The position numbers and the translations under genes were made by a program. Shown piece after piece: positions 36,032 through 58,264 of a stretch of 64,000 bases of DNA (the first letter of the stretch is position 1; each line of letters starts with the position of its first letter). Origin of the DNA: Gemmatimonadota bacterium (GTDB lineage: Bacteria; Gemmatimonadota; Gemmatimonadetes; Gemmatimonadales; GWC2-71-9); assembly GCA_029262195.1 (NCBI GenBank), contig JAJCZX010000003.1, positions 17,499 through 81,498 of the forward strand. The letters are read 5' to 3'. The notes beneath the pieces are model-generated. The model was given only the letters and a program-made list of their open reading frames with translations. It searched no databases and was not told where the DNA came from.

Positions 36032-37381
36032 TCAGGCCAGGGCGGCTTCCAACGCCTGGTAACGCTCAGGGAGCTTCCGAAGGACTTTGCGGTAAAACCC
36101 ACGACGTTCGGCGATGACTGCCGGGTCAAAGAGTCTGCGGTGCAACTCTGCTATGCAGCGTTCGACGGTGTCACCGGACATAAGTGCGGGGTCGTAGACA
36201 GAGTCGTAGTAGGTGCAGCGGTCCCAATAGCTCTCCGACGGAAGCCGGCCCTGTGACAGCAGACGCTCCGTCATCGCGGTCTTTGGCAACGGAGTGGCTA
36301 TGGTTAGTTGAGGCGTGACGTTGGTCTCAAGCACGAATTGCTCAATGCGACTGAACACCGACTCATCGTCGTGGTCCAATCCCACGATGAACGCGCCGAG
36401 GACAATCATGCCGTTTTGTTGAATCCTACCGACGTACTCCCCGTAACTGTCCAGCATTCGGGCTTTGAAGTTGTCCACGCCGCGGAGGTTGTCGGCAGAT
36501 AGACTTTCCAGTCCGACCAGCACCATGACGCAACCCGCCTGGTACATCAGTTCTAGAAGCTCTTCATCTGCGCCAATACCGATATCGGACTGCGCCATGA
36601 AACGAATCCTCATTGGAATGAGAGCACGCAGGAGTTCCTTCGAAAATTTGCGGTTGATGAACATGTTGTCGTCGGCGAACAGGAATAGCTGGTTGGGCGC
36701 TGCAGCCCGGGCCGTTTCAACTTCCGCCACTATTTGCGCAACCGTTTTCTTTCTGAAGGTCTTTCCGTACACCTGAGGCACAGAACAAAAATCGCAGTCG
36801 CGTGGGCAGCCCCTCGTTGTTTGGACGGGGAGCATTCGGTAGCCCTTACCGCGAGAGAAATAATCGTCACCCAGCAGGTCATATCGGGGAACCGGGGATT
36901 CGCTGAGCTGGATGTCTGCCAGAGATGTATTGCGATAGAGGTCCCGGGGTCGTCCGTTACGAAAGTCGCTGAGAAATTGCTGCCACGTTCCTTCGGCTTC
37001 TCCCACGAATACTGTGTCTACGTGTTGAGCAACCTCATCCTCCATAACTGTAGCGTGCGGACCACCCATGACCACGTAAACGCCGCGGTGCCGAAATTCT
37101 GTGGCGATGGAGTATGCACGGGTCGCGTGTTGAGTCATTCCGGAAATGGCGACGATATCGTATGGTCGATCGTAGTCGATATCGGTGACCTGTTCGTCGA
37201 CGTACTCGCATGCAACATCGTCCGGGCACAATGCCGCTACTGTCAGAAGTCCGCAGCTCGGTATCATCCACGGCCGAAACGCCTCCGGGAAATCGCGAAG
37301 GAATGCGGCCATGTGTTCGTTCCGCACCGCGAACTCCCCGTGCGGAAGAATGAGCCCTACTCGAAGTTGGGTCTCAGGCAA
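36032..37381 (-). CDS. B12-binding-domain radical SAM protein (class B rSAM)
   Basis: N-terminal cobalamin-binding-type Rossmann strand (RVGLILP...GLLTVAALCPDD). rSAM cluster TTRGCPRDCDFC. The TTG at 37381 is preceded by GGAGGG. The maximal ORF reaches 37435, also a TTG, which would overlap the ligase gene by 62 nt. Confidence 0.8.
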   Translation of the reverse strand: MPETQLRVGLILPHGEFAVRNEHMAAFLRDFPEAFRPWMIPSCGLLTVAALCPDDVACEYVDEQVTDIDYDRPYDIVAISGMTQHATRAYSIATEFRHRGVYVVMGGPHATVMEDEVAQHVDTVFVGEAEGTWQQFLSDFRNGRPRDLYRNTSLADIQLSESPVPRYDLLGDDYFSRGKGYRMLPVQTTRGCPRDCDFCSVPQVYGKTFRKKTVAQIVAEVETARAAAPNQLFLFADDNMFINRKFSKELLRALIPMRIRFMAQSDIGIGADEELLELMYQAGCVMVLVGLESLSADNLRGVDNFKARMLDSYGEYVGRIQQNGMIVLGAFIVGLDHDDESVFSRIEQFVLETNVTPQLTIATPLPKTAMTERLLSQGRLPSESYWDRCTYYDSVYDPALMSGDTVERCIAELHRRLFDPAVIAERRGFYRKVLRKLPERYQALEAALA

Positions 37382-38474
37382 AACACCCTCCGGGAACCGC
37401 GTCCCTCGTTTCGCGGGCCGATGTTGTGGCTGCAACCACCGCGGACATCAACGCCTCGGCAGGAACTCCGGGCAGACTCCGCCCCTCCTGGGTGTACATG
37501 GCGTCAACGGCTTCGGCTATACTCTTCGTGCTGATGTGAGTGCTCTTCAGTCCTCTCTCAATGGCAGACACAGTGGCGTCATCGGCGAAGAAATCGCCCG
37601 TGATATAGGCTGCTTTGATTGAATCCCCCGTAAGGGTCAGATGAACTTCGAGCAGACCTCCGTCAGTCTTTACCTTGCTCTGGCCGAAAGTCTCAGCCGG
37701 GAAGCTTCTGTTGTCGATCCAGTCCGGGCTCTTGTAGCGGGTTTCTTCGAGGGCATTGATTCCTTCACGCTCCGCCTCGCTGAAACCACTGTCGAGAAAC
37801 TTGATGTCGAAAGCGGTCTGGTACGCTCGTTTGATAAGCTGCCGAACTTCGGGAATGGAGATGGAAGTTCCCGTTTCTTTTCGGAGTGTCGTCACTCTTT
37901 TCGAAACGGTCTTGATGTGTTTGTCGGAAATCTTCTCCCACGGAGTTCGCAGCGTGTTCAGCATCAACTCAACGTCGAGATCGACGAGCAAGCTGGTGTG
38001 AAAAAGTAGCCCACCTTTTCGATCGAAGTAAAAACCCATGCCGGCTATTTTCCGCCCGTCTACTTCGATGTCATTCTTGCGGTGGAACGATCCGGATATT
38101 CCGACCCCAGTCAGCGCGTCGACGACCCCTCGGGCGTAGTGATGGAAAAGTTCTCGCACACCGAGGTTTCTCTTTTTATTCTGTTCGCGCGGCACCGTGA
38201 TGGCGAGGCCGAGTTGGTCGGCGCCCATGAGAATAGCACCGCCGCCGGTCGGTCTCCTGTTAATCTCGATATTGTTCGCTTTGCAGTAGTCCTGGCGAAT
38301 CTCTGAATCGAGGTGCTGGAATCGCCCGATCAGAGCGCAGTGGGATTTATACGTATAGAGTCTGAGAAGCGGAGCTCCGTCCGAACGGGTAGTCATGTAT
38401 TCGTCCGCTGCAAGCCCAAAGCTCGCCGATACCTGTTCGTCCGCGATGTATCGCCACTCCTGTCGCTTACTCAT
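37374..38474 (-). CDS. Lipoate-protein ligase family protein, paralog 2 (LplA-like catalytic and C-terminal domains)
   Basis: RRPTGGGAILMG and GRKIAGMG (catalytic Lys context). ATGA overlap with the upstream paralog. Confidence 0.75.
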   Translation of the reverse strand: MSKRQEWRYIADEQVSASFGLAADEYMTTRSDGAPLLRLYTYKSHCALIGRFQHLDSEIRQDYCKANNIEINRRPTGGGAILMGADQLGLAITVPREQNKKRNLGVRELFHHYARGVVDALTGVGISGSFHRKNDIEVDGRKIAGMGFYFDRKGGLLFHTSLLVDLDVELMLNTLRTPWEKISDKHIKTVSKRVTTLRKETGTSISIPEVRQLIKRAYQTAFDIKFLDSGFSEAEREGINALEETRYKSPDWIDNRSFPAETFGQSKVKTDGGLLEVHLTLTGDSIKAAYITGDFFADDATVSAIERGLKSTHISTKSIAEAVDAMYTQEGRSLPGVPAEALMSAVVAATTSARETRDAVPGGCFA

Positions 38475-39505
38475 GGCAGGGGTGCGGCGCTCCACTCGCG
38501 GAGTCGGTTTAGCATCTCGTGTTCAGCGTGCAGGTGTGGGTTAGACGCGAGTATTTGGTCGATAGGCCCGTCGGGATGCCAACCACGAAAGGCAGCCTGC
38601 AAGTCCTCAAGAGGCGGGTCAAGTACAATGTCGTCGATCGCGCCGTCGAGCATACGAACGGTGAACCGGTGGCGCGATCCGTTCAGCTGCACTTCATCCT
38701 CCCGCACAGAAACCCGGGCGGAGACCTTTAACGTGTCGTTCGCGACGCTCCCTTTTTTGTGAACCCACTCTGGCGAACCCAGCTGGGCTCCGATGGAAGC
38801 TAAACGGTGGCTCTCTCTCTCTGTGAGTTCCCCCTGCACTATCTCCCGGTTTAAAGCTGCGGAGTAAGCGTCCACCAGGAGGGCAGTGACTACTCCCATC
38901 GAGGGCGGCCGTGGGAGTTCTTCCTTCAACGTGGTGAGGCAATTTTTCAATCCAGTCTCTACCAGAGAGCGAAAAGACTCGGAAGGAGCCTGCCACAGAC
39001 GGATCATCTTCTCGCGGGGAAAATCGAAAAGAATGTTCCCTACGACTACAGTTGCGTCTCGTATCTGTCCCGCGCCCGTGCCGGCGATGCGCTTTCCTCT
39101 CACCTCGATTTCGTTGGGCGGTTTGAGCTCGGCGGAAATGCCGAGTTGCTGGAGAACGGAGACGGGTGCTGAAAGGAAACGGTCGTACATCGCATCCACT
39201 CTGGCGGGCGTGCGAGTCCGGTTGAAGATGCATTGGTAAAACAACTGGTCGTTGTCCAGATAGACCGCGCCACCTCCCAGCTTGCGACGGAGAATAGGTA
39301 CTCCTTTATAGCGACATGCGCCGAGGTCGAGACGAGTGTCTACCTGCTGATGATAGCCCACGCAGAGGTACGGCTCCCGAGGAGCAAGGAGCACGATCGT
39401 GTCCGGCGTTTGGTCGTCCATCGTCTCGGCGATGCAGTGGTAAATCGATTGCGACTGGAGAAAGGGTACCGTCCCCAGGTTCAGCAGCCGGATCGCGTCC
39501 ATCAC
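38471..39505 (-). CDS. Lipoate-protein ligase family protein, paralog 1
   Basis: RRKLGGGAVYLD and GKRIAGTGAG motifs. Its start overlaps the stop of the upstream rSAM gene (GTGATG). Confidence 0.75.
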   Translation of the reverse strand: MMDAIRLLNLGTVPFLQSQSIYHCIAETMDDQTPDTIVLLAPREPYLCVGYHQQVDTRLDLGACRYKGVPILRRKLGGGAVYLDNDQLFYQCIFNRTRTPARVDAMYDRFLSAPVSVLQQLGISAELKPPNEIEVRGKRIAGTGAGQIRDATVVVGNILFDFPREKMIRLWQAPSESFRSLVETGLKNCLTTLKEELPRPPSMGVVTALLVDAYSAALNREIVQGELTERESHRLASIGAQLGSPEWVHKKGSVANDTLKVSARVSVREDEVQLNGSRHRFTVRMLDGAIDDIVLDPPLEDLQAAFRGWHPDGPIDQILASNPHLHAEHEMLNRLREWSAAPLP

Positions 39506-40584
39506 GCCATGATCTCGTGCAACCGAAGCTGGTCTGCGATGATTTGTTGGTCGCTTAGAATCGGAAGGAATGGATAGTCCCGAAACTCTTCGCCCGGTTT
39601 GTAGCTGCCAAAGGGTCGATTGCAGGCAACCTCTCCTTCTTCATCGGGGCACCCTTCAGTCATGAACGGACGACCGCTTGAAATCAACTGGTCGACTAAA
39701 GATCTCTCGGCCGCCAGATGGTTGATGAAGCCGTCGTTGTCAAAACGGATTCGGCTCCGAGCCAACTGGGAATCCTCGATGAGGTGTTTCACCAATTGGA
39801 TTCGTCGCCAGCGGTGCAGGGGGGCACGCGGAACGTTTGCCATTGCTGTTCCGGGCTCCGGGTTAAAGGAAAAGAGGTAGCCTGCTACATCGATGTCCTT
39901 CAACCGGTAAAACAGTTCTACCAACTCTTCGTCAGTTTCGCCAAGCCCTACAACGACGTGGCAGTTCACGTTCATGGGGCCATACATCTCGCGGGCGGCT
40001 TCGACGATATACCAATGGTGGTCCCACGTGTGCGGCCCTTTCGCGGTGCGACCCCTCGTTTTTTCAAACACATCTTCGCTGGCCGCATCCAGTCCCAGGC
40101 CCACGATATCGGCTCCGGCGTCTTTGAAGTCCCGAAGTGAATCAACGTCGAGGAGGTTAGCACTAACGAGCGCGGAGATGAGGACATCTGATTTTGCACG
40201 AACTCGTCTTGTCATGTCGATCAGATCGGCGTTGGCCCGTTTGTCATGAACCTGAGCTATACAAACGCGACCGATCTTCTCCCTGTGCTCGGCGATACGG
40301 TCAGCGACAAGGTCCGTTTCGAAAAGCGGCCATCCCACCCGAATGAACGAGTTGTCTTCGGCAGCCCCCGGGCGCTCCCGGGCCAGGCCACAATACGTGC
40401 AGTTGGCCCAACACCCCTCGGGGTAGTTCTGCAGCAAGTTGATACAGCGTGTAACGCCGTCTCTGTAGAAGCGTCCCTTCTCGAGCCCCAGCACCATCGC
40501 AGCAGCGACGCTTATGCGCACATGCTCCGGGCTGATCTTCAGGTGCTCCGCCTGTTCGGCGACGGGGAGTAGTGTTTTGGTCAT
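39502..40584 (-). CDS. Radical SAM protein, LipS1/LipS2-type lipoyl synthase component
   Basis: CxxxCxxC motif CWANCTYC. Lies in a lipoate-ligase/LbpA operon. Confidence 0.65.
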   Translation of the reverse strand: MTKTLLPVAEQAEHLKISPEHVRISVAAAMVLGLEKGRFYRDGVTRCINLLQNYPEGCWANCTYCGLARERPGAAEDNSFIRVGWPLFETDLVADRIAEHREKIGRVCIAQVHDKRANADLIDMTRRVRAKSDVLISALVSANLLDVDSLRDFKDAGADIVGLGLDAASEDVFEKTRGRTAKGPHTWDHHWYIVEAAREMYGPMNVNCHVVVGLGETDEELVELFYRLKDIDVAGYLFSFNPEPGTAMANVPRAPLHRWRRIQLVKHLIEDSQLARSRIRFDNDGFINHLAAERSLVDQLISSGRPFMTEGCPDEEGEVACNRPFGSYKPGEEFRDYPFLPILSDQQIIADQLRLHEIMA

Positions 40585-40644
40585 AGGAGATATCGGATGG
40601 ACGGAGCGGACAGAACTGACCGTACCGTAGTCACACTGCTCAAA

Positions 40645-40679
40645 CCCACCCGCTCCCCCCTTCCCGCCCCCAACTCCCC
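40645..40679 (-). other. G-quadruplex-forming motif in the intercistronic mRNA
   Basis: The minus strand reads GGGGAGTTGGGGGCGGGAAGGGGGGAGCGGGTGGG, with six runs of at least three G. Confidence 0.5.
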
Positions 40680-40684
40680 GTTAA

Positions 40685-41632
40685 TCACCAGTTCACCCCG
40701 CAGCACGCGTCGTGGAAATGGGGAGTCAACCCCTGTTGGGTTGCGTATTCGACCATTCCCTCGGCGGGGTATGCGATTCCGTTCAATCCAGCATCGATCG
40801 CGAATCGGTCGATTCTTTTTTTCGATTCGCCGTAGGGCCGGGCGCAACCCAGCATTATCGGAGTATCTGGAAGCGTGCGGCGTGCTTTGTTGAAGAACGC
40901 TCCGACCTCCTCCGGGGCCGGGGGGGCGACATTTGCCATCGGTGTGCCGTACAGAGGCATGAAAACCACTATTACCAGGACCTTCGGCGGGTAGGATGCG
41001 ATAAGTTCGAGCGCCCGTTTCTCACCGAGCATCCTTCCGAAATGAAGTCCTAGAATGATATGGGGAATGGTGGGGACGCCGTGACGTTGGAGGCGCTCCA
41101 GTGTTCTTTCATACTCATCAACACCGTAGTCGAGGTGGTAAACCTCTTTGATGGTTTCTTCGGCGCCAATGATGTCGACCATAGCTCCGTCGATTCCAAC
41201 TTCTGCGAGTCCCTCGGCAACCTCCTCGCTAACCAGGCCGGGGTGGACTCTAATTGTCAGGCCCAATTCCCGTCGTACGCGCTTGAGGTCTTCCATGTGT
41301 TGGAGTAGCGGGACACGCCCCTGGCGGTCGCTGCCGCCCGATACCAATACTCCACGCGCTCCCTTCGCCGCTATTTCCTGGCAGGTTTCGAAGAGGCTCT
41401 TGTTTTGCGGCACGTCGTCCATGCGCAGGAGGACCTTGGTGTTGCAGTGTTCGCACTTCAAGGCGCACGCGTCGCCGGTAACGCTAACCGACACGAAAGC
41501 CCGTTCGTCCTGGGACGCGTATTCGGTGGTTTTGAATTTCTTGAGCCCGGGAGCGTAGAAGTGGATGTCCTTTATGTTAACCGGATCCCTGCTCGTTTGT
41601 GACCCGGAGTAACTAATATGCGGCGCGGCCAC
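40685..41632 (-). CDS. Radical SAM protein, LipS1/LipS2-type lipoyl synthase component
   Basis: CxxxCxxC motif CALKCEHC. The GTG start directly abuts the lbpA stop (TAGGTG). Confidence 0.65.
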   Translation of the reverse strand: MAAPHISYSGSQTSRDPVNIKDIHFYAPGLKKFKTTEYASQDERAFVSVSVTGDACALKCEHCNTKVLLRMDDVPQNKSLFETCQEIAAKGARGVLVSGGSDRQGRVPLLQHMEDLKRVRRELGLTIRVHPGLVSEEVAEGLAEVGIDGAMVDIIGAEETIKEVYHLDYGVDEYERTLERLQRHGVPTIPHIILGLHFGRMLGEKRALELIASYPPKVLVIVVFMPLYGTPMANVAPPAPEEVGAFFNKARRTLPDTPIMLGCARPYGESKKRIDRFAIDAGLNGIAYPAEGMVEYATQQGLTPHFHDACCGVNW

Positions 41633-42070
41633 CTACACCCATCCGTTGTCTACGTAACGTGCCACTTCTGTCTCTGCCCAGTCCTGAATGGCATCGGTCC
41701 CTTCGACGAGGTCACCTTCGCCATCCGGGTCGTCAGGCTCGATACTGAACAACCAGCCGTCTCCGTATGGGTCATCAACGATTATTCCCGGGGAGGCGAC
41801 TGTTTCTTCGTTTATTTCGACTACCACGCCCGAAATCGGGGCGACGATTGAACTGACCATCTTTTCGGCCTCGAGCGACCCGACGTCGTCGCCCAGCGCC
41901 ACCGGGGTACCAACGTCGGCGATTTCGAGATGCACAACGTTACCGAGTGCTTCGACGGAAAGGGAATCGAGCCCGACCACGAGTTTGTCGCCGTCGGCGC
42001 GAAGCCAGAGGTGTTCCCTCATGTCGTATTTCAGATCGTCAGGGAACTCGAAATTATCAACCGTTACCAT
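41633..42070 (-). CDS. lbpA: GcvH-like lipoate-binding protein (LbpA)
   Basis: GcvH fold signature with the lipoyl-lysine context SLEAEKMVSSIVAPISGVVVEIN. The ATG at 42070 has GGAGAA upstream; the maximal ORF starts at 42091. Confidence 0.8.
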   Translation of the reverse strand: MVTVDNFEFPDDLKYDMREHLWLRADGDKLVVGLDSLSVEALGNVVHLEIADVGTPVALGDDVGSLEAEKMVSSIVAPISGVVVEINEETVASPGIIVDDPYGDGWLFSIEPDDPDGEGDLVEGTDAIQDWAETEVARYVDNGWV

Positions 42071-42130
42071 TTGTGATTTCTCCAAATGCATAGTTCGTCG
42101 GGCCGATCGAAAGGTGCCGCAACCTCAAAA

Positions 42131-42159
42131 ATTGTGTCGCTAATGCACCCAGGTTGCAA
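42131..42159 (-). promoter_or_regulatory. Candidate promoter of the lbpA/lipoylation operon (TTGCAA-N17-CACAAT)
   Basis: The palindromic hexamer TTGCAA at 42154..42159 read on the minus strand, a 17-nt spacer, and CACAAT (plus-strand attgtg at 42131..42136). Confidence 0.35.
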
Positions 42160-42182
42160 TCCCACGGCAATAATGCAATATT
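42154..42182 (+). promoter_or_regulatory. Candidate promoter of the ArsR-type regulator (TTGCAA-N17-AATATT), sharing its -35 with the divergent promoter
   Basis: The same TTGCAA hexamer read on the plus strand. The -10 region overlaps motif copy 1. Confidence 0.35.
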
Positions 42183-42188
42183 TCTATG
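42174..42188. promoter_or_regulatory. Putative operator, copy 1 (TGCAATATTTCTATG)
   Basis: 14 of 15 positions identical to 42655..42669. Overlaps the predicted -10 of the regulator promoter. Confidence 0.4.
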
Positions 42189-42270
42189 TGGTTCGCAAGA
42201 AAGACCGGGCTTGATGCTGACAGATACCCTTGGGTGTCCGGTTTTGCTCCTACAACTAGAAGAAAATTTT

Positions 42271-42573
42271 ATGGCCTCAATCGAGTTGTTGGAAAAAGAA
42301 GTTCTTGATCGCGCGGCTAATGTCATCAAATGTCTGGGGCATCCGCTGCGTCTCCGTCTCCTGGCAGTTCTTGAAGAAGGAGAAAAGACGGTTACGGAGC
42401 TTCAGGAACGAAGTGATGCGACACAGGCAACCGTCTCCCAGCAGCTTGCAACACTCCGCGGGCGGGGAATCGTTGATTGCCGGCGTGAAGGAGCCAACGT
42501 CTTTTATTGGACAATTGAGCCGAAGGTATCAAAGATCCTGGACTGTATCAGTCAGTGTGATCGCGGCTTTTGA
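42271..42573 (+). CDS. shdrR: ArsR/SmtB-family transcriptional regulator (sHdrR/SqrR-like, Cys-containing)
   Basis: Winged-HTH signature LGHPLRLRLLAVLEEGEKTVTEL...ATVSQQLATLR. Four Cys residues. Divergent from the lbpA operon and upstream of tusA-shdr. Confidence 0.75.
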   Translation: MASIELLEKEVLDRAANVIKCLGHPLRLRLLAVLEEGEKTVTELQERSDATQATVSQQLATLRGRGIVDCRREGANVFYWTIEPKVSKILDCISQCDRGF

Positions 42574-42615
42574 TTTATACGTAACTCTTCCCATTACCGG
42601 ATAAGTTGCCGCTGT

Positions 42616-42644
42616 TTGACGGCCCCTGTAATGCGGGATATGAT
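42616..42644 (+). promoter_or_regulatory. Sigma70-type promoter of the tusA-shdr operon (TTGACG-N17-TATGAT)
   Basis: Near-consensus hexamers with a 17-nt spacer, about 108 nt upstream of the tusA ATG. Confidence 0.55.
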
Positions 42645-42654
42645 ATGCAAAGAT

Positions 42655-42669
42655 TGCAATATTTCCATG
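42655..42669. promoter_or_regulatory. Putative operator, copy 2 (TGCAATATTTCCATG)
   Basis: Lies just downstream of the predicted transcription start of the tusA-shdr promoter. Embedded in the imperfect inverted repeat ATATGCAA-AGA-TTGCAATAT. Confidence 0.4.
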
Positions 42670-42751
42670 CAGTTTTAGAAGTGTTGAATGTTGTGACCCT
42701 GGGGACTCGGGGTTGTAGAGTTGATAAATCAGAATTCAGGAGTGTTGTACC

Positions 42752-42991: not shown

Positions 42992-43008
42992 ACAGGGCGG
43001 GAGAAACA

Positions 43009-43380: not shown

Positions 43381-43391
43381 CGAGGTAATCC

Positions 43392-44081: not shown

Positions 44082-44121
44082 TGGTGGAAATCCGACTGGT
44101 TAAATTTGAAAGGGATCCTGC

Positions 44122-50132: not shown

Positions 50133-52274
50133 GTGATAACGGCGGTGCAGCAGGAAGTTACTCGCGAAGTTTTTCTTAACTTCTCGACCACCGCCAAGGT
50201 CGTTTTCTACGTTGTCGCGAACGCGGCCATTATCGTTTTTTTCTGGGGCTCCTGGCTCAAGGTCCGAAAGTACAGGCGCGGGTTACCGGATAATCGGTTT
50301 CAGTTCCTGTTCAGGAGACTGGCTACTGCGGGATCCCAGTACGTTGCCAACAGGACCGTAGCCAGGCGCAACCCGATTGTGGGGTTGTCCCACAGCCTGA
50401 TTGTCTGGGGTTTCCTGGCGTTATTTATTGGCACCGTAATCCTCACTATTGACGAAGACATCCTGGGAATAATCCTACCTCAGTACCAGTTCTTCCACGG
50501 CGCTTTCTATCGCTGGTACTCGGTAGTCCTGGACGTACTCGGTGTGGGCTTCCTGATCGGGCTTGTCGCGATGGGCGTGAGACGGGGGTTCGCCAGGCCG
50601 AAAGCTCTGGATTATTCGAGAGTTGACCGTTCCCAAAATGAAACCAGTCGAGGTGGCTTCAAACGCGGCGATTGGCTCTTCCTGGGGCTCCTCTTCTTCA
50701 TTGGCGTCACCGGATATCTACTTGAAGGGTTCCGCATTGCTGGAACCGGGTTCCCAGAGTTTGAAAGATGGTCTCCGGTGGGTTGGTGGCTTGCCGGGGT
50801 TTTTCAGGGATTCGGATGGGTGGGCGATGCAGGGCTGGATGCTCACAAGGTCACCTGGTGGGTCCACGGTGCCGCAGCGCTTGGTTTCGTAGGGTACATA
50901 CCCTACTCCAAGGCGATTCACGTCGTCGTCGATTCGCTTAATATCGCCTTCAAAGATCCGCTGGCTGGAAAACGGTTGCCCGCGGCTGCTGAGGGGGCCG
51001 ACCACCTTGGCCAGAGGGACCTCGGCGACTTCACGTGGAAACAACTACTGGACTTCGACGCCTGCACCAAGTGCGGTAGATGTCATGTGGTGTGTCCGGC
51101 CCGGCTTGCCGGGGCTCCACTGTCGCCTCGCGATCTGATTCTCGATATGCGCCAGCACGCGGATGCGTCACTCGCGTTCCTGGCTCCCGGACATGAAAAA
51201 CTTGCCAACCCCGGATTCGGGGATGCGACTGCAATGATTCCAGGTTCAGTGATTGGAGCCGACACACTCTGGGCCTGCACCACATGTTTGGCCTGTGTGG
51301 AGGCCTGTCCGGTCGGTATTGAGCACGTGCCAACCATAGTTGGTATGCGCCGCAACCTTGTCGACCAGGGTGAAATTGAGTCGATGCTTCAGTCGACGCT
51401 TGAAAACTTCGGAAAAAAGGGCAACTCGTTCGGCAAATCAGGTCGGATGAGGGCCAGGTGGGCGAAAAGTCTTCCTTTCAAGATCAAAGACGCGCGCAAG
51501 GAACCTGTCGACGTTTTGTGGTTTGTGGGTGACTATGCGGCGTTCGATGAAACGGTTCAAGAAACAACACTAAAAGTTGCGCGGGTCTTTGACGCGGCCG
51601 GTTTGAATTTTGGAATTTTGTATGAAGGAGAGCAGAACGCGGGTAATGATGTAAGGCGCGCCGGAGAAGAGGGTCTTTTTGAGATGCTCGCAGAACACAA
51701 TATCGCTGAGTTGGAAAAGGCTGATTTCAAGGAAATCGTCACGACGGACCCCCATTCTCTCAACGCTCTGCGGAACGAATACCCCGAACTCGGAGCGTCT
51801 TATCCGACCGTTCACTACACCGAACTCCTTGTTCGCCTGATCGAAAACGGATCCATCAAGATTGCGAACCCAATGGGTCGCAGAGTAACCTACCACGACC
51901 CGTGCTACCTTGGTCGTTATAACGACGTTACCGAAGCTCCACGCACCTTGATGGCGCTGTGCGGATCGACTGTCGTCGAAATGCCACGGCATGGGAAGAA
52001 TTCATTTTGCTGCGGTGCGGGTGGTGGGCGGATCTGGATGGATGACAGTGCTCTGGAAGAACGCCCCAGCGAAAACAGGATTAAGGAGGCAGCGGAGCTT
52101 ACAGGAATAACGGATTTCGTGGTCGCCTGCCCAAAGGACATGTCCATGTTTAGAGCGGCGGCCAGCACAACCGGTCTGGATTCAAAACTTCAGGTCACCG
52201 ATGTAATCGATCTCGTCGTGGAAGCGATGGGGTTGGACCTCTCGGACTCCGATGACAAAGAGCAAGAAGGGTAG
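50133..52274 (+). CDS. emo: Membrane-bound Etf:quinone oxidoreductase-like FeS protein (Emo/DUF224 type: NarI/DsrM-like TM domain, 2x[4Fe-4S], CCG domains)
   Basis: About five N-terminal TM helices with conserved His residues. CTKCGRCHVVCP and CTTCLACVEACP. YHDPCYLGR and FCCGAGGG. Confidence 0.75.
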   Translation: MITAVQQEVTREVFLNFSTTAKVVFYVVANAAIIVFFWGSWLKVRKYRRGLPDNRFQFLFRRLATAGSQYVANRTVARRNPIVGLSHSLIVWGFLALFIGTVILTIDEDILGIILPQYQFFHGAFYRWYSVVLDVLGVGFLIGLVAMGVRRGFARPKALDYSRVDRSQNETSRGGFKRGDWLFLGLLFFIGVTGYLLEGFRIAGTGFPEFERWSPVGWWLAGVFQGFGWVGDAGLDAHKVTWWVHGAAALGFVGYIPYSKAIHVVVDSLNIAFKDPLAGKRLPAAAEGADHLGQRDLGDFTWKQLLDFDACTKCGRCHVVCPARLAGAPLSPRDLILDMRQHADASLAFLAPGHEKLANPGFGDATAMIPGSVIGADTLWACTTCLACVEACPVGIEHVPTIVGMRRNLVDQGEIESMLQSTLENFGKKGNSFGKSGRMRARWAKSLPFKIKDARKEPVDVLWFVGDYAAFDETVQETTLKVARVFDAAGLNFGILYEGEQNAGNDVRRAGEEGLFEMLAEHNIAELEKADFKEIVTTDPHSLNALRNEYPELGASYPTVHYTELLVRLIENGSIKIANPMGRRVTYHDPCYLGRYNDVTEAPRTLMALCGSTVVEMPRHGKNSFCCGAGGGRIWMDDSALEERPSENRIKEAAELTGITDFVVACPKDMSMFRAAASTTGLDSKLQVTDVIDLVVEAMGLDLSDSDDKEQEG

Positions 52275-52280
52275 GCAAAG

Positions 52281-52718
52281 ATGGGCGATGCACGCGGCTG
52301 TAATATTCCCGAAGATCGTTATTACTGGGTAGAGAAGCACGTTTGGGTGAAAGAAGACCAAGGCGGCGTGTTTCTAGTTGGCATGACTGATGTCGCCCAG
52401 AACATGGCGAGTGCACTCGTTGCGGTGACTCCCAAACGGGCAGGCCGGTCGATAACCAAAGGGAAGAGTGTTGCGACGGTCGAAAGTGGTAAGTGGGTGG
52501 GCCCAATTCCCGCCCCGGTAAGCGGTGAAATCGTTGAGATCAATGAGGCCTTGAAAGCCGATCCCGGTATCGCTAATCGCGATCCCTACGGGGAAGGTTG
52601 GGTGGTGAAATTCAAACCTGATGATTGGGCCGGTGAGGGTGTTGGATTACCGACTGGTGCAGAGGCCGTTACCGCATACGATGCGTTCCTTGAGCAAGAG
52701 GGAATAAGCTGCGAGTAG
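52281..52718 (+). CDS. lbpA: GcvH-like lipoate-binding protein (LbpA)
   Basis: Lipoyl-lysine context ATVESGKWVGPIPAPVSGEIVEIN. Confidence 0.8.
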   Translation: MGDARGCNIPEDRYYWVEKHVWVKEDQGGVFLVGMTDVAQNMASALVAVTPKRAGRSITKGKSVATVESGKWVGPIPAPVSGEIVEINEALKADPGIANRDPYGEGWVVKFKPDDWAGEGVGLPTGAEAVTAYDAFLEQEGISCE

Positions 52719-52728
52719 GACGCTTTTA

Positions 52729-53181
52729 GTGTCGGTGTGGCGCGGGTGCGATATCCCGGAAGATCTTTGGTACGACATTGATCGTGACGTTTGGATCCGT
52801 GTGGAAGGCGATGGGACGGTTACTGTGGGAATGACGGACCCGGCGCAAACGCGGTGCGGAATGCTGGTGCACCTGCAGATCAAGCGACCGGGTCGAAAAG
52901 TGGTGAGAGGGCGGAGCATTGCGACTGCGGAGAGTGCCAAGTGGGTTGGGCCGTTTCCGGCACCGGTGTCCGGAGAGATTGTTGGGACGAATCAGACCGC
53001 GTTTGACGACGATGTTCGGATAGCGAATAAGGACCCCTACGGGGGCGGCTGGATAGCCCGGCTTCTCCCGGACGACTGGGCAGGTGAAGTTGAGCAGCTG
53101 TCGACGGGAAAAGATGCTGTGGAGAAGTACAAGCAACGAATCGAAGCGATCGGCGTTAACTGCATGAGGTGCGCCGAGTAG
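52729..53181 (+). CDS. lbpA: GcvH-like lipoate-binding protein (LbpA), tandem paralog
   Basis: Lipoyl-lysine context ATAESAKWVGPFPAPVSGEIVGTN. Confidence 0.8.
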   Translation: MSVWRGCDIPEDLWYDIDRDVWIRVEGDGTVTVGMTDPAQTRCGMLVHLQIKRPGRKVVRGRSIATAESAKWVGPFPAPVSGEIVGTNQTAFDDDVRIANKDPYGGGWIARLLPDDWAGEVEQLSTGKDAVEKYKQRIEAIGVNCMRCAE

Positions 53182-53206
53182 GATTCGAGATTGAAAGGAG
53201 CAGGTT

Positions 53207-53782
53207 ATGGGCAGCACGATTGATGGCCGAGGTGCTATTACTGCCGAGATGGAAGAGTTGATCGCACAGAAGGTGGCTGAGGCGATTGCCGCGAAGGAAG
53301 CGGAAAAGGCTGACGCACCGAAAAAGATGACGATCATTGCGACAAAGGGTACGCTGGACTGGGCCTACCCTCCTCTAATTTTGGCCTCTACCACGGCTGC
53401 TCTGGGCTGGGAGGTCGGGATCTTCTTTACCTTCTACGGTTTGAACATCATTCACAAAAAGAAGATCAAGAAACTGGCAGTAGCCCCTCTGGGAAATCCA
53501 GCCATGCCAATGCCTGTGCCAAACATCATAGGGGCGATCCCTGGGATGACTGCGGTGGGCACGGCAGTGATGAAGAAAATGTTCAAGAGCCACGGAGTTG
53601 CGTCTATTGAAGAACTCCTGGAAATGTGCATCGACCTTGACGTGAAGTTGTTCCCATGTGGCATGACCATCGAAGTGTTTGGATATGACCCCAAGGATTT
53701 CGTTGACGGAATCGAGCCTCTCTGCGGGGCGGCGCATTTCGTCGAATATGCGGCTGACGCGGATGTTTCGCTGTTTATCTGA
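53207..53782 (+). CDS. dsrE: DsrE/DsrF-like family protein (DsrE3-type) with an N-terminal charged extension
   Basis: MTIIATKGTLDWAYPPLILAS...IFFTFYG core. Conserved Cys in KLFPCGMT. Confidence 0.7.
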   Translation: MGSTIDGRGAITAEMEELIAQKVAEAIAAKEAEKADAPKKMTIIATKGTLDWAYPPLILASTTAALGWEVGIFFTFYGLNIIHKKKIKKLAVAPLGNPAMPMPVPNIIGAIPGMTAVGTAVMKKMFKSHGVASIEELLEMCIDLDVKLFPCGMTIEVFGYDPKDFVDGIEPLCGAAHFVEYAADADVSLFI

Positions 53783-53821
53783 TAAAAGTTAGAAGTCAGA
53801 AAGTTCACCGACCTAAAGGGC

Positions 53822-55363
53822 GTGTTGATGGCTGCACCATCAGTTGCAGAAGCAAATCATGAGTTGAAGTGGGCCAAGACGATTGATCACACGAAGTGCA
53901 TTGGTTGCCATGCGTGTACGACGGCCTGCAAGTCCGAAAACGAAGTTCCGTTGGGTGTAACTCGTACCTACGTGAAGTACGTTGACGTGGGTGTTTTCCC
54001 GCAGGCGCACCGCGCGTTTCAGGTTACTCGTTGCAACCAGTGCGAGGATGCGCCGTGTGCCAAAGCCTGTCCGACGGCCGCGATGCACAAACGCCCTGAC
54101 GGGATAGTCGACTTCGACAAATCGATTTGCATCGGCTGCAAAGCTTGTATCGCTGCGTGTCCGTACGATGCAATTTTCATTAACCCCGAGGACCACTCTG
54201 CGGAGAAGTGCAACTTTTGCGCGCATCGAATTGATGTTGGGCTGGAACCAGCATGCGTCGTCGTCTGCCCGACCGAAGCGATCATGGTTGGCGATCTAAA
54301 CGACCCGACCTCCGGTGTGGCGCGAATGGTAGATAGGGAACCCGTCACGGTGCGCCGTCCGGAGAAAGGCACCCTCCCGAAACTGTTCTACAAAGGTGCT
54401 CGCCAGGTGACGTTGGACCCGATCGCGGCAAAGCGGCCCGGTGGCGGACTTTTCATGTGGAGTGAGCAGCTTACCGGAACCCAAAGAGTTGTTTCTGGTC
54501 ATCCGGGCGAAAACAATAGTTCGGCTGCGGCGGTGCTGTCGTACGATGTTCCGCATAAAGCTCCCTGGGATTGGCGAGTGAGCCTCTATACCTGGACGAA
54601 GGGCGTTGCGGCAGGGGCTTATCTTGTGCCGCTACTGATTTTGATGATGGGTGGAATAGGACCGGACGACCCTCTCTGGGTGTGGGTCGCGCCGATCATG
54701 GCCGGAATAGGGCTCGCTCTGACCGGCGTTCTGTTGATATGGGACCTGGAACATCCCGAACGCTTTTACATGCTGTTCACACACGCCCAGTGGAGTAGCT
54801 GGTTGGTCCGCGGCGGGTTCATTATCGGCGCCTACTCTGCAGTTCTGGGTTTGCATTTTCTCGGTTCTGTGCTGGACGTGCCGGACATCCGGCGGCTTTT
54901 GATTCTACCAGGGTTCTTTTTGGCTGTGATGACTTCCGTTTACACCGCATATCTGTTCGCACAGTCCAAGGGACGGGATATGTGGCAGAACCCGCTCCTG
55001 GTACCGCACCTGCTGATACAGAGTCTAATGTTGGGTGCAGCTCTCCTGTTGGTTTTTGCCCCGCGCGGTATGTCATCAGTGACAGGGCACCTCCACTGGA
55101 TGCTTCAGATTACCATCCTGATCCACCTCGCTCTGGTAATGGGCGAGGTTTCGATGCCCCATCCCACTGCACATGCCAAACTCGCCACGCAGGAAATGAT
55201 TGCGGGTCGCTTTGGCGGGTTTTTCTGGGTCGGGATACTGATGGTTATGGTGGGACTCGCTGCTCCGTGGTTGGGAGTGGCGGTGGTGCCGTTTGTCGCT
55301 GTCGGACTTTTTGCTCACGAGCATGCCTGGGTGCAGGCCGGCCAATCTGTGCCGCTGGCCTGA
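53822..55363 (+). CDS. Fused 4x[4Fe-4S] subunit (PsrB/NrfC/SoeB-like) and NrfD-type 8-TM quinone-interacting subunit (PsrC/SoeC-like)
   Basis: Residues about 1-200 carry CIGCHACTTAC, CNQCEDAPCAKACP, CIGCKACIAACP and CNFCAHR...CVVVCP. Residues about 245-513 form eight hydrophobic helices. The reading frame is uninterrupted. Confidence 0.75.
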   Translation: MLMAAPSVAEANHELKWAKTIDHTKCIGCHACTTACKSENEVPLGVTRTYVKYVDVGVFPQAHRAFQVTRCNQCEDAPCAKACPTAAMHKRPDGIVDFDKSICIGCKACIAACPYDAIFINPEDHSAEKCNFCAHRIDVGLEPACVVVCPTEAIMVGDLNDPTSGVARMVDREPVTVRRPEKGTLPKLFYKGARQVTLDPIAAKRPGGGLFMWSEQLTGTQRVVSGHPGENNSSAAAVLSYDVPHKAPWDWRVSLYTWTKGVAAGAYLVPLLILMMGGIGPDDPLWVWVAPIMAGIGLALTGVLLIWDLEHPERFYMLFTHAQWSSWLVRGGFIIGAYSAVLGLHFLGSVLDVPDIRRLLILPGFFLAVMTSVYTAYLFAQSKGRDMWQNPLLVPHLLIQSLMLGAALLLVFAPRGMSSVTGHLHWMLQITILIHLALVMGEVSMPHPTAHAKLATQEMIAGRFGGFFWVGILMVMVGLAAPWLGVAVVPFVAVGLFAHEHAWVQAGQSVPLA

Positions 55364-55372: not shown

Positions 55373-58264
55373 ATGACTGCTAAGAAGACTGTTGGAGTAA
55401 CGAAGGAAGAAACTCAAGATCGGGGGGAGACCCACTACCCTGGTTCAAGTCGCACTTCTCTGGCCGCATACCCTCCGAAGGAACGGTGGGATGATTGGGT
55501 GGAGCTGGATTCAAAGTCGTGGCCAGAAAAAGTTGAAAAGCGATACCGGCTCGTTCCCACAACGTGTTTCAATTGTGAATCCGCCTGTGGACTCCTGGCG
55601 TACGTTGATCGGGAGACCGGGGAGATTCGCAAACTGGAAGGCAACCCCGAACACCCGGGGTCCCGCGGGCGCAATTGTGCCAAAGGGCCAGCGACCGCAA
55701 ATCAGATTCAGGACCCTGATCGAATTCTCTATCCCATGAAAAGAGCAGGTGAGCGGGGTGAAGGGAAATGGGAACGAGTCGATTGGGAAGAGGTGTTGGA
55801 CGTTGTTTCCGAAAAAATTCGCAGGGCGATTGATGAGGATCGGCACAACGAGGTCATGTATCATGTTGGTCGACCGGGCGAAGATGGATTTACCGAGAAA
55901 ATCCTTGCCGCCTGGGGAGTAGACGGCCATAATTCGCACACCAACGTTTGCTCATCTAATGCCCGGGCCGGTTATCAGTTCTGGATGGGTATGGATCGCC
56001 CGAGCCCCGACTACGGCAATGCGAAAGTCATTCTGCTGATCTCGGCTCATCTTGAGACCGGGCATTATTTCAATCCGCACGCGCAGCGGATAATGGAAGC
56101 AAAGAATAATGGCGCAAAACTGATTGTATTTGACACGCGGCTCTCGAACACAGCTACTCACGCCGACCATTGGATTTCTCCGTTCCCCGGATCTGAAGCG
56201 GCGATCTTGCTCGCGATCGCTAACTATTTGATCCAGAACAAACTCTACAATCGGACATACGTGGAACGGTGGTTCAACTGGCGGGAATTTATGGCCGCTG
56301 AACGATCGAATGTTGAGGCGACGTTCGAGAATTTTGAAAATGAACTCGTCGAGCTATATGCCGAATACACGTTTGAATTCGCGGCGGGAGAATCGGGCGT
56401 GGATGCTGATACACTCAAAGCGGTAGCTGAAGTCGTGGCTACAAGCGGTACACGGCTGGCGTCACACAACTGGCGCAGTGCCGGGGCGGGGAATGAAGGA
56501 GGCTGGCAGGTTGCTCGCACGTTGTTCTTTTTGAACGCCCTGCAGGGGGCGGTGGCAACGGAGGGTGGGACGTGTGGGAACGCGTGGAATAAATTCGTTC
56601 CCAAACCGATGATTGTGCCGCCGCATCCCGATAACTGGAATGAGCTTACCTGGCCGGTCGAGTACCCTCTTGCGATGAACGAGCTGTCGTTTCTCCTGCC
56701 ACATTTTTTGAAGTCCGGGCGGGGCAAGATCGATACGTATTTCAGTAGAGTCTACAATCCAGTGTGGACCAACCCTGATGGATTCACCTGGATCGAGATA
56801 CTGAAAGATCCAGACCTGGTAGGGCTTCACATTGCTATGACTCCCACGTGGAACGAGACGGCCTACTTTGCGGACTACGTAATACCCATGGGCCACAGTC
56901 CAGAACGACACGACCTTACGTCTTACGAAACTCAGCATGGCCAGTGGATCGGATTCCGTCAGCCCGTGTTGCGAACGCTGGCTGAAAAGGACGGTCGCAC
57001 AATAACCGATACGCGAGAGGTAAACCCGGGCGAGGTGTGGGAGGAAAACGAGTTCTGGCTTGAGTTAACCTGGCGCATTGATCCTGACGGTAGCCGGGGA
57101 ATCCGCAAACACGTTGAGTCGCGCAAGAAACCGGGCGAGCGTGTCTCCGTCGACGAGTATTATTCCTATTCGTTCGAAAACTCTGTTCCCGGACTTCCGG
57201 AGATAGCGGCCGAAGAAGGCCTTTCGGCTCTGGAGTACATGCGCAAGTACGGAGTGTTTGAAGTAAAAAAGAAGCAGGGCGAGTTGAATGAATCGGAGGT
57301 CCCCGCTTCTGAGTTAGACGACGTCGCCGAAAACGAATTCGGCAGAGTGTACACGAGAACACCGAAACCAGCCTCGCCCAACATTGCGCCGACAGGTGCT
57401 CCGGACGACGATTCGGAAGGTCGCCGAGCCGTTGGTGTCCGAGTAGATGGCAAAGTTCTAAAAGGTTTCCCAACTCCAAGCGGATTATTGGAATTCTATT
57501 CTCCAACGCTCGCTCGCTGGGGTTGGGGTGAAGCAGCTATTCCGACATACATGAAGAGTCATGTTCATCCAGACAACCTTGGTGATGGTCAATTCGCTCT
57601 TATATCTACCTTCCGCCTACCGGTACAGATTCATACTCGAAGTGCCAACGCTAAGTGGTTGGACGAGATAGCACACACCAACCCTCTGTGGATCAACACG
57701 GTTGATGCGGCTCGCCTCGGCTTGCGGACTGGCGACCTTGCCCGGGTGAGTACGGAGATCGGTTATTTCGTGTTGAAGACATGGGTTACAGAGGGAATTC
57801 GCCCGGGCGTTGTCGCCTGCAGCCACCACATGGGGCGCTGGAAGGTGGGAGAAGAGGGCCAGAGGCAGAACATGGCTACTGTTGATCTCCAGAACGACGG
57901 CACCAGTTGGAAGATCACTCGGAAAAAGGGTGTTGCACCGTATGAATCTTCTGATACTGATACGTCCAGGATCTGGTGGAGTGATGCCGGGGTCCATCAG
58001 AACATTACGTTTCCTGTGCATCCCGACCCGGTTTCTGGCCAGCATTGCTGGCATCAAGCTGTGCAAGTGGAAAAGGCTCATCAAGACGACGCAGCCGGCG
58101 ACATTAGTGTCGACACAGCGAAATCAATGGCGGCTTATGAAACCTGGATGGCCAAGGCTCGGACGGCTCATGACCATTCCCCGGACGGTACGCGTCGGCC
58201 CCACTGGATAATGCGGCCTCTAAAACCGGGGAAAGAACACTTCAAACTCCCACCAAAACGTTGA
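55373..58264 (+). CDS. Molybdopterin (bis-MGD) oxidoreductase catalytic subunit of the Psr/Phs/Ttr/Soe clade, without a Tat signal (SoeA-like)
   Basis: FS0 motif CFNCESAC...RNCAKG. Cys Mo-ligand region HTNVCSSNARAG. 963 aa. The N-terminus has no RRxF(L/K) twin-arginine motif and no hydrophobic h-region. Confidence 0.75.
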   Translation: MTAKKTVGVTKEETQDRGETHYPGSSRTSLAAYPPKERWDDWVELDSKSWPEKVEKRYRLVPTTCFNCESACGLLAYVDRETGEIRKLEGNPEHPGSRGRNCAKGPATANQIQDPDRILYPMKRAGERGEGKWERVDWEEVLDVVSEKIRRAIDEDRHNEVMYHVGRPGEDGFTEKILAAWGVDGHNSHTNVCSSNARAGYQFWMGMDRPSPDYGNAKVILLISAHLETGHYFNPHAQRIMEAKNNGAKLIVFDTRLSNTATHADHWISPFPGSEAAILLAIANYLIQNKLYNRTYVERWFNWREFMAAERSNVEATFENFENELVELYAEYTFEFAAGESGVDADTLKAVAEVVATSGTRLASHNWRSAGAGNEGGWQVARTLFFLNALQGAVATEGGTCGNAWNKFVPKPMIVPPHPDNWNELTWPVEYPLAMNELSFLLPHFLKSGRGKIDTYFSRVYNPVWTNPDGFTWIEILKDPDLVGLHIAMTPTWNETAYFADYVIPMGHSPERHDLTSYETQHGQWIGFRQPVLRTLAEKDGRTITDTREVNPGEVWEENEFWLELTWRIDPDGSRGIRKHVESRKKPGERVSVDEYYSYSFENSVPGLPEIAAEEGLSALEYMRKYGVFEVKKKQGELNESEVPASELDDVAENEFGRVYTRTPKPASPNIAPTGAPDDDSEGRRAVGVRVDGKVLKGFPTPSGLLEFYSPTLARWGWGEAAIPTYMKSHVHPDNLGDGQFALISTFRLPVQIHTRSANAKWLDEIAHTNPLWINTVDAARLGLRTGDLARVSTEIGYFVLKTWVTEGIRPGVVACSHHMGRWKVGEEGQRQNMATVDLQNDGTSWKITRKKGVAPYESSDTDTSRIWWSDAGVHQNITFPVHPDPVSGQHCWHQAVQVEKAHQDDAAGDISVDTAKSMAAYETWMAKARTAHDHSPDGTRRPHWIMRPLKPGKEHFKLPPKR

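Follow-up and report, generated by a model that had tools for sequence, protein, structure and literature searches.

The locus described here raises the question of whether one bacterial chromosome encodes, side by side, a complete pathway for cytoplasmic sulfur oxidation, the machinery that assembles its cofactor and an enzyme that removes its product. It lies at positions 36032-58264 of a 64,000-nucleotide stretch of DNA (the window, by which we mean that whole stretch) from the Gemmatimonadota bacterium assembly GCA_029262195.1 (contig JAJCZX010000003.1, forward strand, 17,499 to 81,498), and it contains 22 genes. The answer that we reach has three parts. From its gene content, the region is very probably a type II sHdr-LbpA system for cytoplasmic sulfur oxidation; beside it stands an operon predicted to assemble lipoate, with two accessory genes; and the molybdenum (Mo) enzyme at its far end, to which we are inclined to assign sulfite oxidation, appears to be a resident neighbor that joined the system by juxtaposition.

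Identity of the core locus

Domains were assigned by Pfam and NCBIfam searches with the proteins of the window's open reading frames (ORFs), each NCBIfam score being judged against the cut-off of its family. Gene order was read from a tblastn matrix across 80 type II loci, which were found by scanning a single genome for each GTDB species and represent more than 12 phyla; comparison loci and contigs bear L-numbers (L002, L090, L093 and so on).

Type II sHdr has been defined by the presence of shdrC1B1AHB3 and etfAB in one syntenic cluster (PMC11094781). In the window, shdrC1-B1-A-H-B3 are contiguous and in that order from 43392 to 48380, with etfB and etfA directly after them, and the locus is a type II sHdr locus by this definition. 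The HdrA-like protein, in which the GGGPAG and CSKVCC motifs are present, matched the sHdrA of Hyphomicrobium denitrificans (6TJR) from residue 3 to residue 347 with an E value of 1e-84 in a search of the PDB, whereas methanogen HdrA aligned only over residues 100-346. In sHdrB3, two CX2CX2CX3CP motifs are invariant, while the CCG part is invariant only at C310, C346, C347 and C388, and this single conserved set of CCG cysteines agrees with the published description of the protein (PMC11094781). The sHdrB3 of the window is 100% identical to one protein of the public collection, and its nearest named relatives, at 83%, are from Gemmatimonadota. The EMO-like protein has about five transmembrane (TM) helices, two iron-sulfur (FeS) motifs and two CCG domains, an architecture that would fit an EMO of the kind described from Syntrophus (ETF:(methyl)menaquinone oxidoreductase). 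The order TusA-(DsrE2)-DsrE3-C1-B1-A-H-B3-EtfB-EtfA-EMO-LbpA-LbpA is common to the 80 loci, its layout being kept across all of these phyla, and sHdrH is found between A and B3 in 78 of them. The genes of the rightward unit, from tusA onward, are the following.

42752..42991, plus strand: TusA sulfur carrier (CPLP motif; domain searches)
43009..43380, plus strand: DsrE3-type sulfurtransferase (domain searches, synteny)
43392..44081, plus strand: sHdrC1, with two [4Fe-4S] motifs (domain searches, synteny)
44122..45306, plus strand: sHdrB1, with a CCG domain (domain searches, synteny)
45299..46348, plus strand: sHdrA, a 349-aa FAD/FeS flavoprotein (best PDB match 6TJR)
46345..47103, plus strand: sHdrH, 252 aa, without a Pfam family (position between A and B3)
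47100..48380, plus strand: sHdrB3, a fusion of HdrC-like and HdrB-like parts (domains, cysteine motifs)
48384..49154, plus strand: EtfB (Pfam)
49151..50131, plus strand: EtfA (Pfam)
50133..52274, plus strand: EMO-like membrane FeS/CCG oxidoreductase, 713 aa (about five N-terminal TM helices)
52281..52718, plus strand: LbpA, copy R1 (Pfam GCV_H, lysine alignment)
52729..53181, plus strand: LbpA, copy R2 (Pfam GCV_H, lysine alignment)
53207..53782, plus strand: DsrE2-like sulfur carrier (NF047629, 207.3 bits; no TM helix detected)
53822..55363, plus strand: fusion of a four-cluster FeS protein with an NrfD-type quinone-binding anchor (domains; no signal peptide)
55373..58264, plus strand: Mo-bis(pyranopterin guanine dinucleotide) (Mo-bisPGD) catalytic subunit, 963 aa (domains; no twin-arginine motif)

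An initial annotation, made without database searches, had identified a type II sHdr-LbpA cluster here, and both the gene content and the end-to-end match of the HdrA-like protein to sHdrA, a grouping that it had named as a test, bear this out. Its coordinates proved correct for 22 of 22 genes, as did the leftward order of lbpA, two radical SAM genes, two ligase genes and a B12-domain radical SAM gene, and domain searches upheld its family assignment for every gene. The CPxP of TusA is present as CPLP, the CCG domain was found in the HdrB-like protein sHdrB1, and the E-x-x-K context of the lipoyl-lysine occurs in all three GcvH-like proteins (EAEK, ESGK and ESAK). Paired CX2CX2CX3CP motifs, claimed for the HdrC-like proteins, are found in the HdrC/B fusion but not in HdrC1, the second motif of which is CX2CX2CX2CP. 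Four overlaps of starts and stops were confirmed (-8, -4, -4 and -4 nt). From tusA to the Mo gene, a run of 15 genes, no gap does exceed 40 nt, but arsR and tusA are 178 nt apart; likewise most genes of the leftward unit are tightly packed, but lipS1 and lipS2 are separated by 100 nt. What was overstated was the novelty of the locus: the published type II catalogue already counts 130 GTDB assemblies of 13 phyla (PMC11094781), and the type II cluster of Thermomicrobium roseum (trd_0142-0160) comprises 19 genes, three of them lbpA, and is induced 45-fold in nutrient limitation (PMC6776052).

The carrier proteins fit the same assignment. All three GcvH-like proteins belong to Pfam GCV_H and align their lipoyl-lysine with Lys64 of Escherichia coli GcvH. 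None of their genes adjoins gcvT or gcvP; their positions are conserved in dozens of shdr loci, and the leftward copy lies beside Lig1 and LipS1 in 24 loci.

Several observations weigh against identifying the region as an sHdr-LbpA system. The PDB and NCBIfam searches, which returned GcvH entries only, did not separate LbpA from GcvH by sequence, and the published phylogeny of LbpA does not resolve the non-proteobacterial and type II lineages. The DsrE2-like protein falls just under its NCBIfam cut-off (207.3 versus 210 bits). In L090, which has the same shdr core, neither an assembly operon nor Mo genes lie alongside. Finally, our literature search found no biochemical or experimental functional study of type II systems, in agreement with the initial annotation, which had called them biochemically uncharacterized.

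Two variations of the core were seen in comparison loci. A transporter of the YeeE/YedE family (PF04143) is encoded between shdrB3 and etfB in L096 (1386-2570) and L097 (1412-2596); SoxT transporters were reported to be absent from type II genomes in a 2024 paper, and these YeeE proteins may represent a different subgroup. Proteins of 154-179 aa without a Pfam family are encoded after EMO in L090 (15200-15664), L096 (6469-6990), L097 (6466-6990) and L098 (1043-1582), and the window has no such gene at that place.

Origin of the layout

Comparison with close relatives suggests how the present arrangement arose. L093 and L094 encode an 86%-identical Mo subunit; on both contigs the FeS/NrfD and Mo genes come next after a GH20 gene, at a distance of about 490 nt. 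Three stretches of the window (23345-28304, 31915-34155 and 53825-58258) are collinear with L093. Because this collinearity is interrupted between the last two stretches and GH20 abuts the Mo genes in the relatives, the interval 34159-53821 is read as a 19.7-kb insertion or deletion between GH20 and the resident Mo genes; it corresponds to positions 7961-8454 of L093.

34159..53821: 19.7-kb block absent from close relatives (collinearity comparison)
34162-35994, minus strand: MutS-like gene, 610 aa, with MutS domains III and V, inside the block

Along with the MutS-like gene, the assembly operon lies inside this block, as do arsR and the entire shdr-lbpA-dsrE2 set. No homologue of the MutS-like gene occurs in any related locus, and this gene is probably cargo unrelated to the system. 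The borders of the block show neither direct nor inverted repeats of at least 9 nt nor a shift in base composition. L090, a closer relative by its shdr genes (sHdrB3 81% identical), shares the arsR-to-dsrE2 core of the window, with ABC-transporter genes after it and no assembly operon upstream. On these comparisons, the "supercluster" of the initial annotation is best described as a juxtaposition of modules that move separately. The genes do stand side by side, as had been claimed, but the Mo genes are resident neighbors and not part of the block by descent. They now lack the upstream region of their relatives and begin 39 nt after dsrE2, and because this short gap replaces about 490 nt of upstream sequence, they are probably transcribed by read-through from the shdr promoter.

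The window also differs from L093-type contigs by a further indel of some 3.5 kb (28304-31831), which contains genes for a 1-Cys peroxiredoxin, a major facilitator superfamily (MFS) transporter and a DUF7790 protein.

A candidate sulfite-oxidizing molybdoenzyme

The relation of these resident Mo genes to sulfur oxidation can be judged from the enzyme itself and from its neighbors elsewhere. The N-termini of the Mo subunit and the FeS/NrfD fusion carry no twin-arginine motif and no signal sequence. Because neither subunit has an export signal, the complex should face the cytoplasm, the orientation that has also been inferred for SoeABC (PMC8076601). The family is large and strongly conserved, with thousands of proteins near 72% identity, of which the named sources are mostly Acidobacteriota (Pyrinomonadaceae), and further homologues in T. 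roseum (59%), Rhodococcus jostii RHA1 (56%) and haloarchaea (about 51%). In 18 of the 80 type II loci the Mo gene lies within 10 kb of shdrB3, and in most of these the FeS/NrfD fusion is intact. The wider surroundings are also rich in sulfur genes. In Acidobacteriota they encode rhodanese, MBL-fold proteins resembling persulfide dioxygenases, TusA, DsrE, sulfate transport and an ArsR regulator. In Rhodococcus DsrE-TusA lies directly upstream, and MBL-fold and ArsR genes are also close by. The neighbor in Thermomicrobium is a CsoR-type regulator, and a haloarchaeon has rhodanese with a TauE/SafE exporter.

On topology and genomic context, the proposal of the initial annotation that this is a candidate sulfite oxidizer is reasonable, and we lean toward an enzyme that would oxidize sulfite to sulfate and deliver the electrons to quinone in the manner of SoeABC. 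We suggest more tentatively that Mo enzymes with a fused FeS/NrfD partner and no twin-arginine translocation (Tat) signal form a widespread family of cytoplasmic sulfite:quinone oxidoreductases distinct from SoeABC.

The leading alternative is that the Mo enzyme is an unrelated resident neighbor, or an oxidoreductase of the Psr, Phs or Ttr kind acting on thiosulfate, polysulfide, persulfide or tetrathionate, with sulfite disposed of by export through a TauE-type protein. We regard this as unlikely, though a good part of the evidence speaks for it and so weighs against a role in sulfite oxidation. The adjacency of Mo and shdr genes in the window itself arises from the indel: close relatives have GH20, and no shdr genes, ahead of the Mo genes, and the near relative L090 has shdr without Mo genes. 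The best NCBIfam match of the Mo subunit is PhsA (191 bits), and among solved structures ArrA and PsrA come nearest to it, at an E value of only about 1e-35. The gene order is BC(fused)-A and not the ABC of soeABC, and no TorD-like chaperone gene was found in the 64-kb window. A TauE/SafE gene, moreover, is close at hand (61117-61968, minus strand). Against this alternative, every NCBIfam score, that of PhsA included, is far below its cut-off, and the missing Tat signal is unlike Psr, Phs and Ttr. The Mo genes adjoin type II shdr in 18 of the 80 loci, an arrangement that appears to have arisen repeatedly and independently in several phyla; the recurrent MBL-fold neighbors can be read as sulfite-producing persulfide dioxygenases, and the 39-nt gap that replaces the 490-nt upstream region implies co-transcription with the shdr genes. 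Sulfite oxidation by the Mo enzyme is the function that we continue to prefer.

No NCBIfam model named for Soe matched the Mo subunit, and a tblastn search of plasmids returned only members of the same family or generic Mo enzymes. Matches in Thioclava and Ralstonia were considered as a SoeA reference and rejected as not Soe-like; those in Azoarcus and Sulfurovum have the gene order B-C-A-TorD.

Between the Mo gene and the TauE/SafE gene, which belongs to the family of sulfite exporters (113.6 bits), lie 2.9 kb of DNA with an Omp85-family gene. The TauE/SafE protein would offer an alternative or additional route of sulfite disposal. A DUF302 gene (351 aa) paired with a Toluene_X outer-membrane channel gene recurs by sulfur modules (L002, 5745-8182; L100, 9525-11995), beside the Mo genes in an acidobacterium and after the B12-domain radical SAM gene in the other contig. 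A CsoR-type (Trns_repr_metal) regulator replaces the ArsR-type regulator in L084 (7096-7374), L096 (12413-12685) and L097 (12331-12603), and these regulators adjoin Mo genes or lbpA/dsrE genes in some lineages.

The lipoate-assembly operon and its two additional genes

The leftward unit consists of six genes.

41633..42091, minus strand: LbpA (GcvH-like), copy of the assembly module (Pfam GCV_H; lysine kept)
40685..41632, minus strand: LipS1 radical SAM lipoyl synthase (NF053742, 245.9 bits)
39502..40584, minus strand: LipS2-like radical SAM lipoyl synthase (NF053743, 206.6 bits; synteny)
38471..39505, minus strand: Lig2, ligase paralogue, 344 aa (catalytic domain only; GKRIAG)
37374..38495, minus strand: Lig1, sLpl(AB)-like lipoate:protein ligase, 373 aa (catalytic and C-terminal domains; GRKIAG)
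36032..37312, minus strand: B12-binding-domain radical SAM protein, 426 aa (ORF to 37435; Pfam B12-binding and Radical_SAM)

By these assignments the operon is a genuine lipoate-assembly module. LipS1 scores above its NCBIfam cut-off (245.9 versus 230 bits), and Lig1 keeps the presumed catalytic lysine in GRKIAG, the corresponding motif of solved ligases being G(R/K)K(I/F)xG. The LipS2-like protein counts against the assignment in that it falls below its cut-off (206.6 versus 270 bits), yet this model is its best match and its position is syntenic. No LipT-like gene was seen in the window. The initial annotation had presented cofactor-assembly genes beside shdr as an advance on published arrangements; lipS1, lipS2 and slpl(AB), often with lipT, have in fact already been described adjoining shdr-lbpA (PMC10332631).

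Two components of the operon appear not to have been described before. Lig2 has arginine (GKRIAG) where Lig1 and the solved ligases carry the presumed catalytic lysine. The same K-to-R paralogue, with GKRIAG or GRR[IV]AG, occurs in five further loci (L020, L025, L053, L054 and L061), closing an LbpA-Lig1-LipS1-LipS2 module in each; the six loci are the window, from Gemmatimonadota, and representatives of four other phyla. The B12-domain radical SAM protein probably starts at 37312, in agreement with a database gene call of 426 aa, which leaves a 61-nt gap after the ligase gene in place of an overlap. All of its NCBIfam matches are far under cut-off. An AlphaFold model of the protein (predicted local distance difference test score 91) has AprD4 as its best fold match, at a TM-score of 0.74, followed by MgmA, TsrM and MiaB.

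It is possible that these two genes are passengers, or are decaying, and take no part in LbpA maturation. For the radical SAM gene this was our first conclusion, since no homologue was present in any of the 94 comparison loci, all 80 GTDB type II loci among them, and it was dropped after a search for homologues in a protein collection and examination of their contexts. The subfamily is small (some 30 clusters at a threshold of 55% identity), and its source names are Gemmatimonadota, Deltaproteobacteria and Nitrospinota. Homologues of 56-68% identity lie in the same module in L095, L096, L097, L098 and L100, so that the gene is found within a type II lipoate-assembly module in six of six contexts, the window included; L098 has the exact gene order of the window, L100 its divergent layout, and the contexts together span several rearranged layouts and, by the source names of other subfamily members, at least three phyla. 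A homologue with 39% identity has unrelated, lipid-type neighbors, and the link to the module therefore appears to be specific to this subfamily. The CX3CX2C radical SAM motif and about 46 other columns are invariant, and the K-to-R ligase, its lost lysine notwithstanding, is full length and kept in all six loci. With this evidence on one side, and on the other the absence from the 80 loci, the small number of clusters and the missing catalytic lysine, a passenger origin seems to us quite unlikely.

Because only one further cysteine of the B12-domain protein besides CX3CX2C is invariant, a methylthiotransferase with an auxiliary cluster is unlikely. One might imagine that a small minority of type II systems use a modified LbpA cofactor in place of plain lipoate, with C-methylation or a radical rearrangement like that of AprD4 as examples of what the B12 enzyme might do to the acyl chain or to the carrier protein; Lig2 would then be a non-catalytic adaptor that presents LbpA. 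We consider this improbable; the proposal of a separate family of sulfite-oxidizing Mo enzymes, made above, is the more probable of the two.

A third ligase-like paralogue (RREVGGGAVYLD, G[RK]KIGGTGA), with its lysine kept, is encoded inside the shdr cluster in 51 of the 80 loci, after the lbpA pair or before dsrE3 (e.g. L006, 17138-18019), and is missing from the window and its nearest relatives.

Regulation

The features that bear on the control of the two units are listed below.

42163..42193: candidate operator copy 1, in the divergent gap (contains TGCAATATTTC)
42271..42573, plus strand: ArsR/SmtB-type regulator with Cys21 and Cys92 (ATG within ORF 42154-42573)
42616-42644, plus strand: predicted sigma-70-like promoter, upstream of tusA
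42645-42674, plus strand: candidate operator copy 2, upstream of tusA

A single control region of about 180 nt had been proposed for both units. The divergent gap does measure 179 nt, but there is a second regulatory gap before tusA. Among sigma-70-like sites on the plus strand between 42.5 and 58.7 kb, the best falls within this arsR-tusA gap, and three promoters rather than two are therefore probable. Directly after the promoter-like site lies a 25-nt element, the 11-nt core of which, TGCAATATTTC, occurs only twice in the 64 kb when up to one mismatch is allowed, at 42174 in the divergent gap and at 42655 in the arsR-tusA gap. A conserved island, ATGC.A..AT..C.ATA....CAT, is found at the same place in the arsR-tusA gaps of L004 and L090, both from Gemmatimonadota.

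The regulator has one cysteine, Cys21, before a PLRLRLL helix and another, Cys92, near its C-terminus, and a repressor released by persulfide from the two candidate operators is the likeliest reading of these features. This is weakened by the conservation pattern, Cys92 being widespread among shdr-linked homologues and Cys21 confined to the nearest relatives, and by a score of 64 bits against the BigR model, which has a cut-off of 155. The pattern is in keeping with the report that many shdr-linked ArsR regulators do not possess the cysteine pair (PMC12423496).

An Rfam search of the window found no RNA elements, and terminator scans, which gave counts not above those of shuffled controls, are for that reason uninformative on operon boundaries.

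Proposed mechanism and its implications

Following published pathway models, we infer the following course of events. Sulfane sulfur would pass from TusA to DsrE3, with the participation of DsrE2, and thence to an sHdrC1B1A(H)B3 complex, which together with lipoylated LbpA would oxidize it to sulfite. Electrons would exit by way of EtfBA to membrane-bound EMO and on to menaquinone. The divergent operon would lipoylate the three LbpAs by means of Lig1, which has kept its lysine, LipS1 and LipS2, with the K-to-R ligase paralogue and the B12-domain radical SAM enzyme as two accessory proteins. The ArsR-type repressor with its two cysteines would bind the element repeated in both gaps and would probably leave it when persulfidated. 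The sulfite formed would most likely be oxidized to sulfate by the adjacent, cytoplasm-facing Mo enzyme, with electrons going to quinone as in SoeABC.

That the Hdr-like, Etf and EMO genes serve electron transfer unrelated to sulfur, as in Flx-Hdr, Qmo or an acyl-CoA- or lactate-oxidizing EtfAB-EMO chain, with the sulfur carriers incidental, is exceedingly improbable: EtfAB-EMO was first described in syntrophic fatty-acid oxidation, and the Hdr-like proteins match the NCBIfam families of methanogen HdrABC, TfrB, LdhH, QmoC and DsrK, but all of these matches are below cut-off, the short HdrA of 349 aa matches sHdrA end to end, TusA, DsrE3, DsrE2 and the three GcvH-like genes hold fixed positions in about 60 of the 80 loci, domain searches found no acyl-CoA or lactate dehydrogenase gene in the cluster, and the layout fits the published type II definition.

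Type II sHdr is thus a widespread system, found in Chloroflexota, Actinomycetota, Bacillota, Marinisomatota and now Gemmatimonadota. Because all of the presumed parts (regulator, relay, oxidizing complex, quinone exit, three carriers, assembly enzymes and a candidate sulfite oxidase) are present within 22 kb, the locus is a practical template for heterologous expression. Genomic context ties a B12 radical SAM subfamily to LbpA maturation, and a lysine-less ligase is conserved in several phyla. The inward-facing Mo family is very abundant in soil Acidobacteriota. If the enzyme does oxidize sulfite, surveys that report soeABC as absent (e.g. PMC12345210) may underestimate cytoplasmic sulfite oxidation, and if the family is a separate one, surveys limited to classical soeABC would miss the fused enzyme.

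Comparison with known systems

The B12-domain radical SAM protein resembles class B radical SAM enzymes such as AprD4, MgmA and TsrM in having a Rossmann-like N-terminal domain and a CX3CX2C barrel, but its identity to the solved members is about 20% or less, and we know of no characterized class B member that has LbpA lipoylation as its genomic context. The regulator shares with SqrR, BigR, SoxR and sHdrR the ArsR helix-turn-helix fold, a cysteine before the PxRLxLL helix, another in the C-terminal helix and a place beside its presumed targets; unlike BigR, it scores well below the model cut-off.

The Mo complex is comparable to SoeABC of Allochromatium vinosum and Aquifex aeolicus, which likewise combines a Mo-bisPGD subunit bearing an N-terminal FeS site with a four-cluster FeS protein and an NrfD anchor, has no export signals and is found with cytoplasmic sulfite-forming systems. 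SoeA of Allochromatium is about 109 kDa, to which the 963-aa Mo subunit is close, and the length of the FeS-plus-NrfD protein is SoeABC-like as well. This likeness is one of domain content, size and topology, and the window differs in its fusion of the FeS and NrfD parts and in its order BC-A. The distribution differs too: a survey of SoeC reports it only from Proteobacteria, Clostridia and Aquificae (PMC8076601), whereas the Mo family of the window is found in Acidobacteriota, Gemmatimonadota, Chloroflexota, Actinomycetota and haloarchaea.

With the sLpl(AB)-LipS1/LipS2 pathway (PMC10332631) the assembly operon has in common LipS1, a LipS2-like protein, a ligase with the catalytic lysine and a position by lbpA and shdr. 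It differs by the addition of the lysine-less ligase and the B12 radical SAM enzyme and by the lack of LipT; neither B12 nor cobalamin is mentioned in the description of that pathway (PMC10332631). Three features appear to be undescribed: the ligase without its lysine, the subfamily of B12 radical SAM proteins and the repeated association with a Mo enzyme that has a fused FeS/NrfD partner. No account of them was found in the literature searched, which did not include Kümpel et al. 2024, where sHdrB3 and EMO are chiefly described.

The type I system of H. denitrificans (shdrC1B1AHC2B2, lbpA2, lipS1-lipT-lipS2-slpl(AB) and sHdrR), the only one of the two types with a genetically proven function, provides in sHdrA 6TJR the closest solved relative. 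The two systems share the logic of the sulfur relay, dependence on LbpA, dedicated lipoate assembly and an ArsR-type regulator beside the cluster; unlike type I, the window has the B3 fusion in place of HdrC2/HdrB2, has EtfAB-EMO, and shows no LipT.

The closest counterparts are the type II clusters of Sulfobacillus, Chloroflexota and Actinomycetota (Justice 2014; Cao 2018; Tanabe 2024, PMC11094781), which have the same core genes in the same order and share with the window TusA together with a DsrE3-type protein, two or three lbpA genes, an sHdrB3 with one CCG set, EtfBA and EMO. Relative to other type II loci, the window is distinguished by its divergently attached lipoate-assembly operon, by Mo genes after dsrE2, by the lack of the within-cluster ligase paralogue that 51 of 80 loci possess and by a B12 radical SAM gene that only a small minority of loci contain. 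The core that these features surround is an ordinary, if unusually complete, copy of the described type II set.

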